55,693 bases of DNA from a virus (lineage: Duplodnaviria; Caudoviricetes). Every line of letters begins with the position of its first letter. The stretch's first letter is position 1. Shown one piece after another: positions 12,396 through 41,368 of this stretch. A program made the translations under genes and the position numbers. The stretch lies in IMG/VR virus record IMGVR_UViG_3300045120_000102, positions 1 to 55,693 of that record, one strand, 5' to 3'. The notes under the pieces are model-generated. The model was not told where the DNA came from and did no database searches. It worked only from the letters and a program-made list of their open reading frames with translations.

Positions 12396-12566
12396 TTATA
12401 GGTTCGGTTCCTTCACCAGTAGTTGCCAGACCTGATCGGACTGCTCGGTGTCGAACCCGTACAGTTCGTCGAATGTTCCGCAGCGTTGGCAGCACGTCAG
12501 CAGCGTCATACGTTCGTTGTCCCGCAACGCCATAGCCATCACCCAGTCATGGGAACAGGCGGTCAT
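12396..12566 (-). CDS. Small Cys-containing protein
   Basis: MTACSHDW...CCQRCG; ATGA overlap. Confidence 0.55.
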   Translation of the reverse strand: MTACSHDWVMAMALRDNERMTLLTCCQRCGTFDELYGFDTEQSDQVWQLLVKEPNL

Positions 12567-14422
12567 CCGACCCCCGCTGACACTGTTTCCCGCCTGACGC
12601 CCGAGTTGACGGTTTCGGCCCGTACTCCTGCGTTGGCGTTCTGCGCCCGGATGACGGTGGTGTTGTGGTCGGTGGCGGTAGGGATTCCTTCGCTGACCAT
12701 GCCGGCGGCGATAAGCCCGACCACAGCGAGAAGGTAGGACTGCCCGGACCATGTCAGGCTGCCGCCCGCGGTCAGCTGGACAGTGACGGTTGTGTTGCCG
12801 CCAGCGCCGGCGGCGACTACACCCGCCGCGGACAGCGCGACTGTGGCCGACATGACGGCTGTGTTGGTGGCTGTCGTCGCCCCGGCAGCGGTCAGGCCGA
12901 CGGTGACGGTAGTCGAGGCGGTACGGGTGAAGCCCAACACGCCCGAGGCGGTGAGGCCGACCGTGACCGTAGTTACTGTCGTGCTGCGCGCGACTCCGAC
13001 CGCGCCCGCAGCGTCCCGGGTCACGCTGACCGTGATGGCGGCGGAGCCTGTGGCTGCGACGACGCCGTCCGCTGAACGTCCCACCGAAACGGACGTTGGG
13101 GCCGACCCGGCGGCAGCCATAGCTCCGGCTGCGGTCAAACCTGCTGCGACGAAGGTGGCGGCTTGGCCGGTCATCACTGCGCCAGCCGTACCCGCCGCCG
13201 TCAACCCGACCGTGACTACGGTTGGTGTTGTGGAGGTGCTAGCAGCTACCGAACCTGCAGCAGTCAGACCTGCCGCAACGGTGGTTGATGCTTGCCCGGA
13301 GCCGCCCCCAGACGCGGTCAAGACTGCCGCGACCGTGGTAGAAGCTGCCCCCATCATGCCGCCGGCGCCCGCAGCGGGACGCCCAACGGTGACAGTGGTG
13401 GCGGTAGACCCAGCCGAGAACCCTACTGCGCCAGCCGCTGAGCGCCCTACGGTGGCAGTGGTGGCTGTGGTAGGTGCTGCGATGGCTACAAAGCCTGCGG
13501 CGGTCAAGCCTGCCGCGGCGGGGGTTGAGGCGGCTCCGAGCACCCCGGCGACTGTGCTTCCGGTCGCCGTCAATCCGACGGAAACGGCGGTAGTTGCGGA
13601 CCCGCTCGATGCCGCTACGGCTCCAGCGGCGGTCAGGCCGACAATGCCGGTGGTGTTGGCGGCGCCGGTGGATGTACCGGCAGCGGTCAGGCCGACGGTG
13701 ACAGTAGTTGATGCCGCGCCGGAAACGGTGACGGCCCCAGCCGCCGACGGGACAACCGCGATTGCAGTCCCTGGCGACCCGGAGATTGCAGCGACTACGC
13801 CTATAGCGGTGCGGTCGACGGTGACCGGGGTTGATGCCGACCCGGTGACTCCTGCGGTTACGGTGCCAGCCGCGGTCAATGTGACCGTAATTGCGGCGTT
13901 CGAGGACGCCGCGGATGTAGCTACCGAACCGGCCGATGTGACTGCAACAGATATGGGCGCTGACGTCGATCCGGTTACCGCTACAGTGCCGGTCGCTGAA
14001 CGGCTGGCCGTGACCGTGGTAGAAGTTGATCCGCCTGATATGCCGACAGCACCGGATACGGTCAGACCAGCCGATACAGCGGTGGGTGTCGAGCCAGCAG
14101 CTGCGGTGACCGAGCCGGCCGCTGCGAGTCCGGCTGCTGCCGCGGTTGTGGCCGTGCCTGTGGATGTGCCGCCGGCAGTGACGCCGACAGTGACGGTGGT
14201 GGGCGCCGAGCTGGTCGTAGCGGCGACAACACCCGCCGCCGGACGGCCCACCGCGATGGCGGCGGTGGTGGTGCCGGTGGATGCGTCGACAACTCCCGCA
14301 GCGGTAAGACCGACTGCTACCGCAGTGGTGGCCGTTCCGCTGTACCCGGCTACCGCTGCAGTCGCATAAACGACGCGGGGTCGCAGCGCACCAACCGGAT
14401 AGCCCCTACCGGCACGAGCCAT
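12563..14422 (-). CDS. Ala/Thr/Val/Gly-rich repetitive fibre-like structural protein
   Basis: About 25 imperfect ~20-23 aa repeats (TTVTVGLTAAG). Confidence 0.85.
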   Translation of the reverse strand: MARAGRGYPVGALRPRVVYATAAVAGYSGTATTAVAVGLTAAGVVDASTGTTTAAIAVGRPAAGVVAATTSSAPTTVTVGVTAGGTSTGTATTAAAAGLAAAGSVTAAAGSTPTAVSAGLTVSGAVGISGGSTSTTVTASRSATGTVAVTGSTSAPISVAVTSAGSVATSAASSNAAITVTLTAAGTVTAGVTGSASTPVTVDRTAIGVVAAISGSPGTAIAVVPSAAGAVTVSGAASTTVTVGLTAAGTSTGAANTTGIVGLTAAGAVAASSGSATTAVSVGLTATGSTVAGVLGAASTPAAAGLTAAGFVAIAAPTTATTATVGRSAAGAVGFSAGSTATTVTVGRPAAGAGGMMGAASTTVAAVLTASGGGSGQASTTVAAGLTAAGSVAASTSTTPTVVTVGLTAAGTAGAVMTGQAATFVAAGLTAAGAMAAAGSAPTSVSVGRSADGVVAATGSAAITVSVTRDAAGAVGVARSTTVTTVTVGLTASGVLGFTRTASTTVTVGLTAAGATTATNTAVMSATVALSAAGVVAAGAGGNTTVTVQLTAGGSLTWSGQSYLLAVVGLIAAGMVSEGIPTATDHNTTVIRAQNANAGVRAETVNSGVRRETVSAGVG

Positions 14423-34784: not shown

Positions 34785-35336
34785 TTAGGAGCCGCCGCCG
34801 AAGAATCCCCTAGCGAAAGCTAGGTCGTCCTCGTTGGTGGTGGTTCCGGTCTGTGTCGACGTGCCCTCTTTGGGCACGTTCGGGTGTTTCTTCTTGCGCT
34901 CGGTCTCGGCGTTCGCCATTTCGGCCGTGCGGTCTGCGAGTCGCTTCGCCTGGGCGGTTAGCGTCTCTTCGTCGGTTCCAGTGAGGAACAGGTCAGCGTC
35001 TTCCAATGAGATGCCGTGCGTGACAGCGATGCGTAGACGCAGGGATTCCGCTTTCGCGGTGTCCCGGTCCTTCTCGGCGGTGGTGATACGACCGTTAGCC
35101 TTCTCAAGTTCGGAGAGGTTGGCCTGCTCGATCTGGTCGAGCTTGGCGGCCTTAGACTTGAGGTCGTTGTAGTCCTTGAACTTTGCGCGTTCCCGGTCTA
35201 AACGATCTTTCAGCGCCGCGTTCAGCTCTTGCTGCGAGTTGATTGGTTTGAACTCGTCAGCGGCGGGCGTCTCTCCGCTGGCGTTTCCGCCCTGGCCTTC
35301 TGCCGTGTTGGTCGTTTCGGGTGCTGCATCTGACAT
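34785..35336 (-). CDS. Scaffolding protein
   Basis: SQQEL..RL.RE.AKF.DY.DLK...SELEK; AGGAGG RBS. Confidence 0.88.
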   Translation of the reverse strand: MSDAAPETTNTAEGQGGNASGETPAADEFKPINSQQELNAALKDRLDRERAKFKDYNDLKSKAAKLDQIEQANLSELEKANGRITTAEKDRDTAKAESLRLRIAVTHGISLEDADLFLTGTDEETLTAQAKRLADRTAEMANAETERKKKHPNVPKEGTSTQTGTTTNEDDLAFARGFFGGGS

Positions 35337-35439
35337 TGGTTGTTCCTCCTGGTGGACCGCCCGTTAACCGCCGGACGTAGGCGTACACCCGTCAAATTTG
35401 AGTGACGGGAAGAATTGGTGGGGGTTAAATCAGCCGAAT

Positions 35440-35640
35440 CTAGTTTGGCTTTTGCGCCCGCGCGTTCATATAAGCCTGCCGGTGCGGCGACGTGTACCAC
35501 CGCTGCAACAGCATCGACTCGTAGCCTTCCATCCACATCTGCGCCAACGCCAACGACCTACCCGCATAAGGATTCGAGGCACCAACCTCCGCCGCGCGGC
35601 CCTCAGCCAGCGCACGTACCGCGTCATCCTTCATGGTCAC
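35440..35640 (-). CDS. Small Rmf-like protein
   Basis: EGRAA...NPY...W.EGY; GTGA overlap with MuF stop. Confidence 0.65.
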   Translation of the reverse strand: MTMKDDAVRALAEGRAAEVGASNPYAGRSLALAQMWMEGYESMLLQRWYTSPHRQAYMNARAQKPN

Positions 35641-37145
35641 TGCAAATAGTCCTGATTCTGGGCGGCGAACTTGTTGATACTGTACTCGCCGCGCAGCACC
35701 ATTTCCCGCAGAATCGGCCTCGTCAAACGTCCGTTCTTGTCGAACCATTCAGCCATCTCAGGGGTCATCCATTTACGGGCCGTCGCATCGTTCACAGACC
35801 ACAGTTCTTTCGGGTTCACCTTCAACTCGAACGGCTTCCGAACCATGTACCCGTTGGTGGCGTTCTCCGCCTCCAGGGCCATCTCACCGACCCTGCGATG
35901 GAACACCGACGCCAGCAGTTGGTCGAACCCTTCGCCTCTATGGCCTTCCGCGCGTGACTGCGCGATAAAATCCCTGCGCCGGATCGAGCTCACCGATTTG
36001 CCGGTGACCTCGGATTCGGCTTCTGCCGGGTCGGCGCCTTCCTCGATTAGCGCGATTATGCGGTCGGCGTCAGCTTCAGCTTTTGCCGCTTTCCGAGTCT
36101 CGGCGCGGCCTGCGCGTTCAGCTGCGCGGCGTTCGGCGTCCTCGAGCGCTTCGAGCGCCGCGACGGCCGCCTCAACCCGGTCGTCGTCACCGGCGTCGAT
36201 GGCTTCCCTGAGTTCGCGGGCCGCGCGGTTCATCGGTGTCTCGCCGACCGCCTGCGCCGGTTCGGCGGCTACCGCCGTGGGAACACTGTGCAGGTCTTCG
36301 GCATCTACACGCTGCCAGTACTCAAGGGCATGCAGGTAGTCATCCTCAGCGTCCAGCCAAACCGCTGTATCTCTGCGCTCTACGGCCCGCTCTCCTGCTA
36401 CCACGGCCCGCTCACCGCTGGCTCTCTCCATCGCCAACGCAATCTCCTTGGCGCTGCTCGCCCCCGCCCGCGTGGCGGCCTTGTAGTCGGCTTCCCACTG
36501 CTTCACGTACGGGGCCGGCTCAAACGTGCCGCCTTTACGGACGGGTACCGCGGTGCAATGGCAATGATCGTGGTAGCGGTCGCCGAGTTTCTGCGTGCCC
36601 TGGGTGCGGCCACCACGACCGATAACTTTCGTGCGGTACGCGCCGAGCTCCTTGTCGAAAACGACGCCACTAGCTTTGTACAGATACTGCTCGTCACGTG
36701 TGGCTAGCATGCGGCAGAATCCGCACGCCGACGCTGAAGCGTGACGCGCCCAACGGGCACCTTCACGGCCGGCGTTGATGAGCACCGTGTCCCGCGACGC
36801 CCCGAACACCGCACGACTAGCGGTGCCCTTCAGCGCTGATGCCGGGTCGGCTTGAAGCATCGCCCACCGACCCGACGCCGCTAACTGCTCAACCGGCGCC
36901 AACTCTGCGGGCTCAACGACGAACCCGGCGTTCTTCGACGGCTGCTCCCCGTACCACACCGCTGTCGCGCTCGCCGCCGACGCCAGATACGGGGTAGCCA
37001 ACGCCGGGTAGGCGTCACTAATGAACCCCAGCAACTCCGGTTGACTCAACCGACCCAACCTCGGGCCGATCTTGTCTATCCGCGTGCCGAGTTCGTTGCT
37101 GATCCCGGTCAGGAGCCGCTGAAACTCAGCTACCGCCAGCGCCAC
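35637..37145 (-). CDS. MuF-like head morphogenesis protein with long C-terminal extension (start uncertain)
   Basis: WARHASASACGFCRMLATR...YHDHCHCTAVP, then about 270 extra aa. Confidence 0.85.
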   Translation of the reverse strand: MALAVAEFQRLLTGISNELGTRIDKIGPRLGRLSQPELLGFISDAYPALATPYLASAASATAVWYGEQPSKNAGFVVEPAELAPVEQLAASGRWAMLQADPASALKGTASRAVFGASRDTVLINAGREGARWARHASASACGFCRMLATRDEQYLYKASGVVFDKELGAYRTKVIGRGGRTQGTQKLGDRYHDHCHCTAVPVRKGGTFEPAPYVKQWEADYKAATRAGASSAKEIALAMERASGERAVVAGERAVERRDTAVWLDAEDDYLHALEYWQRVDAEDLHSVPTAVAAEPAQAVGETPMNRAARELREAIDAGDDDRVEAAVAALEALEDAERRAAERAGRAETRKAAKAEADADRIIALIEEGADPAEAESEVTGKSVSSIRRRDFIAQSRAEGHRGEGFDQLLASVFHRRVGEMALEAENATNGYMVRKPFELKVNPKELWSVNDATARKWMTPEMAEWFDKNGRLTRPILREMVLRGEYSINKFAAQNQDYLQ

Positions 37146-38619
37146 TGACGGCCTGCTGTGTTGCATTCGGCGGTGGCGGTGGCACAGCGGGCAACTCCGC
37201 GGTCGGCGCCGTCAGTTTGTCGACCAACGACGTAGCCGTGGCGAGCCGCGCACCAGCCATCGCCTGCTTGATCTCCTGAGGAGTCAACCCAAGCAGTTTG
37301 TAACCCACTTCGGTGCCCGCCAACTCCGGCGCCGCAGCCAACTGCTTCATGCCCGCATCCGCTTGCGCCGCGCGGGACTGGTACCGCGGGTCACGCCACA
37401 GCGCGTCAATCGACTTCCATTCAGGCGGCACATCATCCGCGCCGATTTTGTTCAGCATCAGTAGAGCCCGCATGAACGAATTCCGCAGCGCGGGCGTGAA
37501 GTCATCAACCGCGCCCTCCGCTTCGGCGATCAGCTCATACTGCGAAGCGTCATAAGACTCCGCCGAAGTCGGATTCGCCATGTCGGCGATCGCGACAGCC
37601 GTATCCGGCAACTGCGCCTCCCTGGCGAACAGCTTCGCGAGACCGTTGATGTCCGTCCAGTGCGGCTCCGGGGACTGAGCCGGGAACTGCCTCACATCAG
37701 GGCGGGCCAAACTAACATCCACGTCCTGATCATCCGGGATCGCCTTGATCCGACCCAGGCGTATCTCCCACATCGTTTGCTGGGTGCCGTCAGCGTTCCT
37801 GAACACCGAAGCGTCCGCGCCGAGCAACCAAAACTCCGGATAAGAGAACACATCCATGTGCCCCTCGCGGCGAACAAGATTACGCACCGCCGCATCCTGC
37901 AACCCCATGATCGGCCGCGTGATCCGAGACTGCCCGAACGGACGCTTCGGTGCAGGCTTGTACGGCAGCACCTCCGCGGGCACCCCGTACACATGGGGGT
38001 ACCGTTCGACCTCCCATTTTAGGGTCGCTTTGTCGCGGTGAGCTGTGATCGTCTCATCGTCGAGGTATAGGGCGAACTCCAGCAGGTTGCCGTCTTTGTC
38101 CTTGTCGATCACCGACAGCAGATTGTCCAGATGACGGCGGCGACGATTCCACTGCCCTGACGCCTCCGTCGCATCCAGCACGTGGATCAGCGCGCCAGGC
38201 TCGTCGTCCTCGCCGACCGTGTTCACGAGGAACGCCGGGCCGTGCTGCAACGCCGCGACGATCGCCCCGTCAACCTCAGAGTCGAGATGATTGTCATCCC
38301 ACACCTCGGCGCCACCCAAGCTGTCAAGGTCACCGTCAGGCCACACAAACCCATCCAAATTACACCTGCGGGCGAGCGCATCGACCGCCTTACCAGTCCA
38401 ACCAAGAACAAGCCCCAGGTTGTAATACTGCGGCGGGATCATCGTCCCCACGAAACGAACCGACCGCTTATTCTCGTAATACGAGGTGCGCAGCAAATTC
38501 GTCTGACGGCGCCGCTCAATCTCCCCGTGCAGCCCGCAGATGAGGGCGTTCTCATCGTCCGACAAACCAGGAATACGGACGGCCGTCATCTCAGGCAGAT
38601 CAGTGACGGCATACTCCAC
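37126..38619 (-). CDS. Portal protein (SPP1 gp6-like)
   Basis: YYENK, GWTGKAVD, PFGQSRI, NPTSAE. Confidence 0.92.
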   Translation of the reverse strand: MEYAVTDLPEMTAVRIPGLSDDENALICGLHGEIERRRQTNLLRTSYYENKRSVRFVGTMIPPQYYNLGLVLGWTGKAVDALARRCNLDGFVWPDGDLDSLGGAEVWDDNHLDSEVDGAIVAALQHGPAFLVNTVGEDDEPGALIHVLDATEASGQWNRRRRHLDNLLSVIDKDKDGNLLEFALYLDDETITAHRDKATLKWEVERYPHVYGVPAEVLPYKPAPKRPFGQSRITRPIMGLQDAAVRNLVRREGHMDVFSYPEFWLLGADASVFRNADGTQQTMWEIRLGRIKAIPDDQDVDVSLARPDVRQFPAQSPEPHWTDINGLAKLFAREAQLPDTAVAIADMANPTSAESYDASQYELIAEAEGAVDDFTPALRNSFMRALLMLNKIGADDVPPEWKSIDALWRDPRYQSRAAQADAGMKQLAAAPELAGTEVGYKLLGLTPQEIKQAMAGARLATATSLVDKLTAPTAELPAVPPPPPNATQQAVSGAGGS

Positions 38620-40152
38620 CTAGATCACCGACGCGCTTCTACGCCCAGACGACACCCGGCGCCCCAACGACGACGCCCGACCATTCCCGGTCGGCGCACG
38701 CACCGTCATCGCCGCATACAACGCCTCCGTCATCGCGACAGCCGGCCCAATATCGAACGACTCCGACCGCGGCACCAACACCCACCCACCTTGGGCCCGA
38801 TCCTGCCTGCGCGACCCGCGGACAGCGGCCTCTAAATCCGGGTGACCGTCATGCGACAACCTACGTTCCTCCACCATCCCCAACCACAGGGCGTTACCGG
38901 CCCCGACCTCGTTCTGCGTATACGCAGACACCCGGTAACCGGACTGCCGAAGTTTCTCACCCAGCGCCTTCGCAGCACCGGTCGAATCGTGCTTCATCGG
39001 AGTACGACGGGTAGCGTGACGGACCACAAAACTCATCGCCTCCCTCTCTGACTGTGTACCCAATGCGATCTCGACGTGCGCGGAACCACCCTCAGACCAG
39101 CAAGCAGCGACCCAAAACCATCCCCCGCGTGTCGCGTTGATCCCGAACGAAGAAACCTCGGGCAGATTGTCCGGCCGCGCAGCCAAACTGTTCCAGTCGT
39201 CCTTCGGTATAACTGCGATCGTTTCGTTGGTCTTATCCCAAATGCCGAACACTTCGCGCAGCACATTCTCCGGCGACATGTTCTCCACGAGGCGCTCGAT
39301 CGCGGACTTACCGACCCTGAAACCGTAAGAAGGGTTCGCCTCGGCGAGTGACTCCCAGAACCCTGGGGAATCAATGTCGTCAGCCACAACGTCGTGAGGG
39401 GACTCCGGGGAGAACTCCACGAAGACACCCTTGAACGGCCGCCGCCTCTTCAAGTCCAGCGCCCGATCCCTGCGCCGCTTAAACGCTTCGTTCACGCCGA
39501 GCGCCACCTCCGCCGGCCGCGGAGGGGTACCCATGAAGAACGCCAAACCGACATCGGACACGTTCATCGCCGCGAGCATGTCAGTCAACGCCGCCTCGCG
39601 AAGGTTCTGACACTCGTCATACACCTGAATATCGACTTCAGAGAAGCCGCGACCGAACCCCGACGAACGGGCACCGAACAATATTCGCGACCCGTTCTCG
39701 AAATGAACACCACGGTTGTCATCCGCGAAAACGACCGGATACGAGGCACGCATCTTCGGCCGAATGGCAGGCTTCTCCACAATGCCCGCGATTTTCGTCA
39801 ACGTCTCCGACGATGTGCGGTCGTGGTGCGATGACCAAATCACCAACGTTCCCGGACGTGACAGGCAGATCGCGATCAATCCGACCATGACAGCCCAAGT
39901 TTTCCCGGCCTGCCTGGAGATACTCAAAGTCACGCCCATGACATCGCAGGCAAGCGAACCGTCCGCGCGCAACCCAAGGGCCGCGTACCAGATATCTTCC
40001 TGCCACCGGTCCAGCACTACGCCCATCCCGGGCAGCTCCGGTGCGATCAATTCGCCGTACCGGGTGAACACCATGTCATCCGGGACGATGCAATGCCGGG
40101 CGGCCTCGACGAGCGGGGCCGGATTAGCCAGACTTACGGAAGCGGGCGGCAT
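38620..40152 (-). CDS. terL: Terminase large subunit
   Basis: Walker A SRQAGKT, Walker B QVYDE, GTPP, EANPS. Confidence 0.93.
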   Translation of the reverse strand: MPPASVSLANPAPLVEAARHCIVPDDMVFTRYGELIAPELPGMGVVLDRWQEDIWYAALGLRADGSLACDVMGVTLSISRQAGKTWAVMVGLIAICLSRPGTLVIWSSHHDRTSSETLTKIAGIVEKPAIRPKMRASYPVVFADDNRGVHFENGSRILFGARSSGFGRGFSEVDIQVYDECQNLREAALTDMLAAMNVSDVGLAFFMGTPPRPAEVALGVNEAFKRRRDRALDLKRRRPFKGVFVEFSPESPHDVVADDIDSPGFWESLAEANPSYGFRVGKSAIERLVENMSPENVLREVFGIWDKTNETIAVIPKDDWNSLAARPDNLPEVSSFGINATRGGWFWVAACWSEGGSAHVEIALGTQSEREAMSFVVRHATRRTPMKHDSTGAAKALGEKLRQSGYRVSAYTQNEVGAGNALWLGMVEERRLSHDGHPDLEAAVRGSRRQDRAQGGWVLVPRSESFDIGPAVAMTEALYAAMTVRAPTGNGRASSLGRRVSSGRRSASVI

Positions 40153-40375
40153 CGAACGCAACCACCTTGCCAGACTCCCCAGCATCTGAAGCGCCAGATA
40201 CCTGCGCACGCAACCGCAGAATCTCGGCCTTAGTCCGCTCAATCTGACCATTCAACTGCGACCGCATCGTCGGCAGATTTTCAAAAGCCTGAGATAACAA
40301 AAGGTACCGCAGCTCCGCCTCGCCAAGCTCATCACCGGCGACCATCGCTTCATTCAACGTCGCATAGTTAGCCAT
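40124..40375 (-). CDS. terS: Terminase small subunit
   Basis: Small helical ORF overlapping terL; GGAAGG RBS. Confidence 0.7.
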   Translation of the reverse strand: MANYATLNEAMVAGDELGEAELRYLLLSQAFENLPTMRSQLNGQIERTKAEILRLRAQVSGASDAGESGKVVAFDAARFRKSG

Positions 40376-40503
40376 CAGAGCCACCTTCCAAACCCGTCGG
40401 TTTCCGCCCGACGTAGGCGTGACTGCGCCGCAGTGGCACAGAGGTTTTCGGACCGGATTAACGTCAACGCTCTCCGGTGGCGTGCGCTGCTAAACTTGGC
40501 AGC

Positions 40504-41049
40504 ATGTGCAAAGTGGATTCTTGCGATCGCTCTCCTCATGTGCGCGGCTATTGCCGCGGGCACTACGAGCGCGTAGTCATGCACGGAGACCCACGCACTG
40601 GCGATCCCCTTCGCTCACCAGGCGTGCGTCACAAGTGTGGCGTTGAGGGCTGCGTTCACCCCAGTAAGGCAAGGAACATGTGCAACACGCACTACTACCG
40701 CTGGTTCACAACCGGAAGTACTGATGCGCCTGACGCTCCTCCGACTAGGAAGAGTGGGGATCGGTTACTACTAAATGACGATGGTTACCGAACTGTTTAT
40801 CTTCCTGGTCATCCGATGTCGAATGCCGCAGGCATCGTCTTTGAGCATCGACTGGTGATGGCGCAGAGCCTTCAGCGCAACTTGCTCCGCAGTGAGACCG
40901 TCCACCACCGAAATGGGATTCGTGCCGACAACCGTATTGAAAACCTGGAGCTTTGGAGCAAGGCGCACCCAACAGGCCAACGCGTAGAGGACAAGGCCCT
41001 CTGGGCAGAAGAGTTCCTACGCTTATACGCGCCCGAGAAGCTTAAATGA
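40504..41049 (+). CDS. HNH homing endonuclease with two Cys/His Zn-finger repeats, antisense insertion
   Basis: EHRLVM...VHHRNGIRADNRIENL; TAAACT -10 before ATG. Confidence 0.9.
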   Translation: MCKVDSCDRSPHVRGYCRGHYERVVMHGDPRTGDPLRSPGVRHKCGVEGCVHPSKARNMCNTHYYRWFTTGSTDAPDAPPTRKSGDRLLLNDDGYRTVYLPGHPMSNAAGIVFEHRLVMAQSLQRNLLRSETVHHRNGIRADNRIENLELWSKAHPTGQRVEDKALWAEEFLRLYAPEKLK

Positions 41050-41368
41050 AGCGCGGGTTCACATACGACGCACGAACCAACACCACACCACCAGCAGACT
41101 TCTCCCGATTGCACTGCCGACACACCGCCTGGCAATTATCCAACGCATCAGCCTCAACTACCGACCAACCCAAACGCATAGCCTCATCAGAACTGACAAT
41201 ATGGTCAACCTCAAACGAACGAGGGTGCGGCGGGCGGGCCTCATAGTCGATCAGCCCGCCAAACGCCTGGCAATCAGCCGTAATCTGCAACGCACACGGA
41301 TCATCCCCATCACGCCGACGAACCTCAGCCCGACGACGAGTCCGGATCGTGGTCGACGAGAACGGCAC
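41042..41368 (-). CDS. Packaging-associated HNH endonuclease
   Basis: FEVDHI...NCQAVCRQCNREKS; lies between candidate cos and terminase. Confidence 0.85.
   Translation of the reverse strand: MPFSSTTIRTRRRAEVRRRDGDDPCALQITADCQAFGGLIDYEARPPHPRSFEVDHIVSSDEAMRLGWSVVEADALDNCQAVCRQCNREKSAGGVVLVRASYVNPRFI

Follow-up and report, generated by a model that had tools for sequence, protein, structure and literature searches.

Results

Genes and elements in the window

The window (the whole 55.7-kb stretch of phage DNA that was analysed) contained two copies of a small element of 26-27 nt on its minus strand, one in the leader of a head scaffolding protein gene (copy A) and one in the leader of the small terminase subunit gene, terS (copy B; Table 1). 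The window corresponded to a complete IMG/VR virus record. Its head genes were ~77% identical to those of subcluster-F2-like mycobacteriophages (e.g., Che9d, Jabbawokkie and Soul22), and the scaffold gene also matched DUF4355 weakly, under the Pfam cut-off. An earlier note on this DNA had written copy A as ACGCC-TA-CGTCC-GGCG-GTTAAC-GGGCG (35384..35358, minus strand) and copy B as ACGCC-TA-CGTCG-GGCG-GAAAC-CGACG (40420..40395, minus strand), and had placed both 5-7 nt before the Shine-Dalgarno sequence (SD). Sequences and spacing were reproduced, with 7 nt between copy A and AGGAGG and 5 nt between copy B and GGAAGG. Copy A lay 21 nt ahead of the scaffold ATG (35336).

Table 1. Position of the two leader elements and of the genes that follow them in the window.
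Feature	Coordinates	Strand	Details
Copy A hairpin P0	35388..35409	-	CCCGUCA 35409-35403, loop CUCAAAUU, UGACGGG 35394-35388; folded
Copy A core	35357..35384	-	A4; knot strand C5-G6-C7 35383-35381; linker C8-U-A
Copy A stem 2	5' arm 35377-35372; 3' arm 35363-35358	-	G31 at 35357
Copy A loop GCGGUUAA	35371-35364	-	its GCG (35371-35369) able to pair with CGC
Copy A SD AGGAGG and scaffold ATG	35334..35350	-	SD 35350-35345; ATG 35336-35334
Head scaffolding protein gene, 183 aa	34785..35336	-	phrog_3760, E 3.9e-52
Copy B hairpin P0	40423..40441	-	CUGUGCC 40441-40435, loop ACUGC, GGCGCAG 40429-40423; folded
Copy B core	40394..40420	-	A4; CGC 40419-40417; linker C-U-A; G at 40394
Copy B stem 2	5' arm 40413-40408; 3' arm 40400-40395	-	7-nt loop GCGGAAA 40407-40401
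Copy B SD GGAAGG and terS ATG	40373..40389	-	SD 40389-40384; ATG 40375-40373; in-frame GTG at 40384
Small terminase subunit gene (terS), 83 aa	40124..40375	-	phrog_4479, E 3e-37

A covariance model built from relatives (R1) matched copy A with 46.2 bits (E = 1.2e-8) and copy B with 32.4 bits (E = 1.5e-5), and found just these two sites in the window (next best E = 0.079). An exact 11-mer was present at the two sites only, and when one mismatch was allowed it gave 6 matches in the window vs. 1.46 expected, a number reached by 0 of 100 shuffles. A looser repeat test (17-mer with up to 3 mismatches) was not significant (2 matches vs. 1.04 expected; equalled by 27 of 100 shuffles). The nested minimum free energy (MFE) structure of copy A was a 6-bp hairpin that made up 95% of the ensemble, and the MFE hairpin of copy B made up 97%. 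Fold energies were not better than those of shuffled sequences (z from -0.7 to -1.6) and were not significant by themselves. No promoter-like site was found near either copy, and no sigma-70-like site between 34700 and 41500.

Covariation of stem 2

The element is a conserved sense-strand RNA structure. The compensatory change reported earlier between the stems 2 of the two copies was real and general, as both arms varied across relatives and pairing was kept. Covariation in homologs, which had been suggested as a check, was found across 67 distinct sequences and was that of a sense-strand RNA: stem 2 formed a 6-bp helix in which five of six pairs changed on both sides and 99.5% of the cells were paired, with a covariation score reached by 0 of 500 shuffles. 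A smaller, context-derived set of 30 unique sequences agreed (4 of the 5 pairs of the stem 2 first proposed changed on both sides). The element was also present at both places in Che9d, Soul22 and Jabbawokkie, where the stems were different yet complementary (CGCCG/CGGCG, CGUCG/CGGCG with one G·U, and CGUCC/GGACG). At least 16 distinct sequences carried G·U pairs in stem 2; these were tolerated in the gene orientation only (a G·U pair being an A-C mismatch on the other strand), which argues for an RNA and not a DNA site.

Homologous loci were gathered without reference to the motif (74 scaffold and 43 terS loci), and R1 matched directly upstream of the gene in 37 of the scaffold loci and 39 of the terS loci. 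As a control for selection bias, a sequence-only pattern returned 22 unique matches, of which 20 had a perfect stem, one had a single mismatch and one was a chance match within a gene. A wider pattern, with four stem pairs left free, gave at least 130 matches in viral contigs; among the matches listed, 127 had a perfect 6-bp stem and 3 were imperfect. The same free-pair pattern gave 51 matches in a one-per-species genome collection (21 with a perfect stem, 30 with 1-4 mismatches). With flanks judged by eye, all 21 perfect matches were followed by a purine-rich, SD-like stretch and a start codon, and an upstream hairpin was visible in most of them; none of the 30 imperfect matches lay in such a context, again by eye, and these therefore served as an internal control. 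A first viral pattern scan, with 14 specified bases, returned mainly chance matches (perfect 5-bp stem in 9 of 119) and was discarded.

Stem 1 and probable pseudoknot topology

The 4-bp stem 1 (CGCC:GGCG) of the earlier note was wrong in register and in length. Its fourth pair, C8:G16, was contradicted because column 16 was A or U in 27 of the 67 distinct sequences and paired with column 25 (G:C in 38, A:U in 26, U:A in 1 and G·U in 1). A second sequence class (class II) read ...N5-A-GCGG-UCAA-U-N5.... The covariation of columns 16 and 25 made stem 2 a helix of 6 bp with an 8-nt loop, GCGGUYAA. What remained of stem 1, C5-G6-C7 with G17-C18-G19, was complementary and never varied in classes I and II, so that covariation neither confirmed nor refuted stem 1 in the class to which the window belongs.

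A sister form (class III) consisted of P0 (the upstream hairpin described below), AGCGC-NA, a 5-bp stem, the loop GCGCNCAA, the return strand and a G. It preceded scaffold genes of more distant relationship and also occurred in the scaffold leader of Gordonia phages. When it was aligned with the window's class on the helix junction, A4 was replaced by G and G20 by C, which added a fourth pair to stem 1; C8 and the sixth pair of stem 2 were lost, so that loop 1 went from 3 to 2 nt and stem 2 from 6 to 5 bp together. A class III scan with both columns free returned 87 matches; the stem was perfect in 52, and 41 stood in the context of a leader. Among 13 distinct sequences, the added stem 1 pair was G:C in 11, A:U in 1 (L660) and G·U in 1 (L614).

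From the sister class and only two variant sequences, an H-type pseudoknot appears likely at odds somewhat better than even. The topology of the earlier proposal stayed plausible, the linker CGC being able to pair with the loop GCG; its register did not stand. The knot would have a stem 1 of 3 bp, a loop 1 of 3 nt, a stem 2 of 6 bp and a loop 3 of 4-5 nt. By general rules these loops should be long enough to span the grooves (loop 1 crossing 6 bp and loop 3 crossing 3 bp).

The knot of class III leaders (L464-L579 and L580-L666, e.g., L581:120-145:-; L461:1430-1500) was separated from the ribosome-binding site by ~20 nt and a further hairpin, and sat about 25-30 nt away from that site. This third small hairpin lay just before the ribosome-binding site and had a fixed GACG loop on a covarying 3-bp stem (CCU/AGG or GCC/GGC). 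Distant scaffold homologues without an R1 match were also searched; they had no class I or class II hairpin, and some carried class III.

Upstream hairpin and leader layout

A second hairpin with a variable sequence, P0, which had been overlooked in the earlier note, lay upstream of the core and ended 0-6 nt before the A of ACGCC. A P0 stem of at least 6 bp within 6 nt of the motif was present in 78% of 98 unique leaders; the corresponding fraction was 8% for control segments and 11% for shuffled sequences. P0 stems had 71 distinct sequences, with 54% C in the 5' arm and a G-rich 3' arm. The stop codon of the upstream ORF was located 2-6 nt ahead of P0 in 40 of 75 cases, and the distance from the end of the core to the start codon was 14-17 nt in 63 of 101 instances. 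The order of the leader was upstream stop codon, a few nt, P0, 1-3 pyrimidines, A-CGC-C-N-A, stem 2 with the near-invariant loop GCGGUYAA, G, 1-7 nt, SD and start codon. Neither copy in the window had a P0 of intrinsic terminator type; a U-tract was absent, and just 1-3 pyrimidines preceded ACGCC.

Sequestration of the SD by an outer helix, formed by the ribosome-binding site with the sequence 5' of P0, was considered and rejected. The native duplex (-6.27 kcal/mol) was no better than cross-paired (-6.68 kcal/mol) or shuffled (-6.29 kcal/mol) controls, and therefore no conserved SD-sequestering helix was detectable.

The gaps upstream of the two genes differed in length between the window and its relatives. 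In the window, ~300 nt (35337-35636, minus strand) lay between the scaffold gene and a 509-aa protease-like gene, which matched VG15 and a head-maturation protease; short ORFs were present in this gap at 35466-35627 and 35440-35748. The corresponding gap was ~76 nt in both Che9d and Soul22. Between the HNH endonuclease gene (41042-41368) and the P0 of the terS leader, ~600 nt (40442-41041, minus strand) contained short ORFs only, and in relatives the HNH stop codon was a few nt ahead of this P0.

Occurrence and downstream genes

The motif was present in 1-2 copies per genome: two in Jabbawokkie and in genomes G011 and G012, one at terS in an F1 phage (G001, with a 100% leader match to Job42) and in three Gordonia-type records, and one at the scaffold gene in G002-G004. 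Downstream ORFs (n = 133) belonged to one scaffold family (113), the terS family (14) or an unknown family of ~225 aa (5), and one was a 49-aa ORF. Specificity for head genes, as claimed before, was thus borne out by a scaffold or terS gene downstream in 127 of the 133 scored cases. The proteins of 225-228 aa that followed the motif at five loci (e.g., L260:2-685:- and L264:2-676:-) had no PHROG match and a charged, coiled-coil-like composition, by which they may represent an unrecognised scaffold family.

The terS leader was common to 88 Mycobacterium phage records, Che9d, Boomer, Job42 and Jabbawokkie among them, and a scaffold leader matched F2 phages and the Gordonia phages ODay and Ecliptus. 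Contigs of uncultured phages that carried the motif numbered well over a hundred, and it was also present in Mycobacterium, Tsukamurella, Micromonospora, Curtobacterium and Tessaracoccus prophages. Among the 21 perfect-stem genome matches, 16 were in records labelled Actinomycetota (Mycobacterium or Mycolicibacterium, Tsukamurella, Micromonospora, Curtobacterium, Tessaracoccus, Galbitalea, Aeromicrobium, Ornithinimicrobium and Propionibacteriales), and the host labels spanned several actinobacterial orders. The other five lay on four contigs (11-43 kb) that came from differently labelled metagenome bins; these are suspected to be mis-binned phage contigs. The element was annotated in none of the records whose features were examined.

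When five motif-bearing genomes were compared, only head-module proteins were common to all, and a scaffold of phrog_3760 type was found in every motif-bearing genome examined. In the proviruses G008 and G010 (L232, L234 and L237 upstream of terS; L458 and L459) the linker and the knot were absent and P0 lay directly before the ribosome-binding site. These proviruses resembled the window in HNH (~80%), terS (65%) and terL (76%), and had a portal and a protease of another type. The knot is therefore not indispensable. A weak scaffold homologue was also found in motif-less G008, which makes the phylogenetic profile of the scaffold family uninformative. In cluster F1, the scaffold homologue was distant (32% identity; L444:4325-4410) and its leader had no motif, and the terS leader kept the motif with C8 changed to U.

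Discussion

The element is a widespread and genuine RNA motif that appears to be undescribed. To our knowledge, there are almost no known signals that set head-gene output in actinophages after transcription, and the motif offers a concrete, mutable handle on that output. It is present in well-studied teaching and model phages, is a clean test case for a minimal pseudoknot, and could be used as a portable expression part in Actinobacteria.

Proposed function

The element is tentatively interpreted as a cis-acting module for mRNA punctuation, stability and translation start (probability about 0.4), and this interpretation is favoured over a protein-bound operator. Acting in cis on a long late transcript, the element would serve as punctuation that uncouples the downstream head gene from the preceding gene. 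An endonuclease, for example host RNase E, would cut between P0 and the knot, where a short stretch is unpaired. Of the two products, the upstream one would terminate in P0 and be protected from 3' exonucleases, and the downstream one would start directly at the knot and offer no single-stranded 5' tail to RNase E or RNase J. The knot at the 5' end would also keep the adjacent ribosome-binding site open, by which the scaffold-capsid and terminase messages would be stable and would initiate translation independently. The invariant unpaired nucleotides would serve a tertiary fold or recognition by a host factor, and the module would on that account be portable between unrelated phages. Portability is supported by the 1-2 copies per genome, by the sharing of head-module proteins only, and by hosts of several actinobacterial orders.

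In class III, the knot is separated from the ribosome-binding site by ~20 nt and an extra hairpin, so that exact abutment is not required, which speaks against strict steric control. According to PMC10641625, mycobacterial RNase E cuts preferentially just 5' of cytidines, at sites enriched in intergenic regions. Such a preference is compatible with a cut at A4/C5 and proves nothing. Several results count against the punctuation module: ~17 near-invariant nucleotides exceed the needs of a simple stabiliser hairpin and would suit a specific binding partner just as well, the unpaired stretch of class III linkers frequently contains no cytidine, fold energies do not surpass those of shuffles, and G008 and G010 manage without the knot.

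Those ~17 near-invariant, mostly unpaired nucleotides on a covarying stem have the usual look of a protein-recognised hairpin. They could belong to a translational operator: a protein bound to the invariant linker and loop would block or promote 30S binding at the adjacent ribosome-binding site, so that production of terS and scaffold would be tied to head assembly. Candidates for this protein are phage products of the head module, such as free scaffold, and proteins of the host. Such an operator is the main rival reading, albeit less likely. The core ends 14-17 nt from the start codon in the window's class, within reach of the 30S footprint, a phrog_3760-type scaffold accompanies the motif in every genome examined, and the scaffolding gene of P22 is reportedly autoregulated, which would be a precedent. 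However, the shared proteins all belong to the head module, the motif of Cluster F1 and Gordonia phages is confined to terS even though they have a scaffold gene, the weak scaffold homologue in motif-less G008 renders the profile uninformative, and the class III knot lies ~25-30 nt from the ribosome-binding site.

The element might also aid translation without any factor, as an insulator: two stable folds would absorb the flanks, stop ribosomes of the upstream cistron and present a free ribosome-binding site, and the knot may be stacked on the SD-antiSD helix. The ribosome-binding site directly after the knot, the lack of a conserved SD-sequestering helix and the upstream stop codon adjoining P0 are in line with this. 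Any hairpin would do for such a purpose, however, which leaves the invariant linker and loop across scaffolds down to ~45% identity unexplained, and the spacing in class III differs; an insulator is thus improbable. A long shot is a protein-free RNA machine, either a new class of small self-cleaving ribozyme or a knot that resists exonucleases and halts RNase J, which would be the first of its kind from a phage or bacterium. If true, a protein-free knot would cut or shield late polycistronic mRNA of Actinomycetota phages right before the terminase and scaffold-capsid messages.

A ligand-sensing riboswitch as small as preQ1-I or SAM-II is very improbable. It would account for a compact pseudoknot with many conserved unpaired bases beside a ribosome-binding site, but Rfam had no match up to an E of 10, there is no visible expression platform, the fold does not include the ribosome-binding site, and phage head genes would be unusual targets of metabolite control. 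Two hairpins with a conserved linker, in 1-2 copies per genome with one at the head of the structural operon, recall HK022 put and lambda nut; as a processive antiterminator RNA of that kind, the element would act in cis and modify RNA polymerase for the long late operon. There is hardly any prospect of this either, given that no promoter-like site is nearby, P0 has no U-tract, and many genomes have the scaffold copy only, ~4-5 kb into the operon. A DNA-level site (terminase or repressor binding, or a promoter) or a chance repeat, as the 17 nt common to both copies in the window might suggest, has a negligible likelihood, since the stems differ between the copies of one genome with pairing kept, G·U pairs (A-C mismatches on the other strand) occur in at least 16 distinct sequences, the element is always in gene orientation, no promoter-like sites were found, and a chance repeat is excluded by the R1 search of the window and the free-pair scans.

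Comparison with known systems

Known 5' stem-loop stabilisers and intercistronic processing sites, such as the ompA leader of Escherichia coli and the sites in the pap and puf operons, give segments of polycistronic mRNA different stabilities. The present element resembles them in its hairpins flanking a short unpaired stretch between cistrons; they differ from it in having no invariant loop or linker and no pseudoknot. Compact H-type knots (luteovirus frameshift signals, the preQ1-I aptamer and exonuclease-resistant viral RNAs) are likewise ~28 nt and have a topology similar to the probable one of the present element, with a loop 1 of 2-3 nt and an A-containing loop 3 of 4-6 nt. Unlike them, the present element lies outside a coding frame, and it has no sequence similarity to them by Rfam.

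The analogy with the T4 gene 32 operator drawn in the earlier note was not supported, as the genes concerned do not encode single-strand-binding proteins and no A/U-rich tract follows the knot; the 1-7 nt between core and ribosome-binding site were GC-rich. In T4, the single-strand-binding protein that gene 32 itself encodes binds cooperatively along an unstructured tract, and the knot nucleates this binding. Like the autoregulatory pseudoknot of T4 gene 32, the probable H-type knot described here is small, lies in a 5' leader of phage genes and would act post-transcriptionally. The T4 pseudoknot is unlike the present element in that the latter precedes two different genes, terS and scaffold, and includes a second hairpin, P0. 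The gene 32 pseudoknot likewise has no Rfam model, according to PMC10690425.

Searches against Rfam 15 gave 0 matches at the gathering score in the whole window and 0 at E up to 10 in 35200-40650. Literature searches agreed with the statement of the earlier note that no description was known, with the proviso that PMC10690425 could list the motif unnamed. In that paper, the unnamed candidates for structured RNAs from IMG/VR number more than 10,000, and some of them lie upstream of DUF4355 scaffold genes; like the present element, these are structured intergenic elements just upstream of phage scaffold genes, where they are apparently common. Its large candidates DNAVirus_416 and DNAVirus_516 are unlike the present element in belonging to Firmicutes phages and in being flagged as terminators.

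The nearest described start-linked signal of mycobacteriophages is the SAS/ESAS of Cluster K (PMC3203893), which is similarly a conserved, oriented sequence just upstream of start codons. The SAS is a 13-bp consensus, GGGATAGGAGCCC, that includes the ribosome-binding site; 93 sites are given across Cluster K phages, many per genome and restricted to non-structural genes of the right arm. Its function is called unknown in that paper, with a role in translation initiation proposed, and little support for RNA pairing is given for the ESAS repeats (PMC3203893). By contrast, the present element has a different sequence, lies 5' of the ribosome-binding site, occurs in 1-2 copies before head genes only, and covaries strongly.

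Possible pairing partners

Pairing of the conserved segments with 16S rRNA was considered, and the only match was one of 7 nt, TTACGCC to GGCGTAA. It was rejected because about one such match is expected by chance (rough estimate from ~15 possible 7-mers in 1.5 kb). A trans-acting RNA partner was likewise rejected, and the window contained no tRNA or tmRNA. The complement of the loop occurred 8 times in the window vs. 4.24 expected, which was equalled by 6 of 100 shuffles. The loop-complement 8-mer TTGACCGC was found four times at 13131-13879 (minus strand), with spacings of 183, 186 and 372 nt, inside a 619-aa ORF (12563-14422). TRF reported no DNA tandem repeat at 13131-13879, and the four occurrences in this ORF probably reflect a repeated protein domain.
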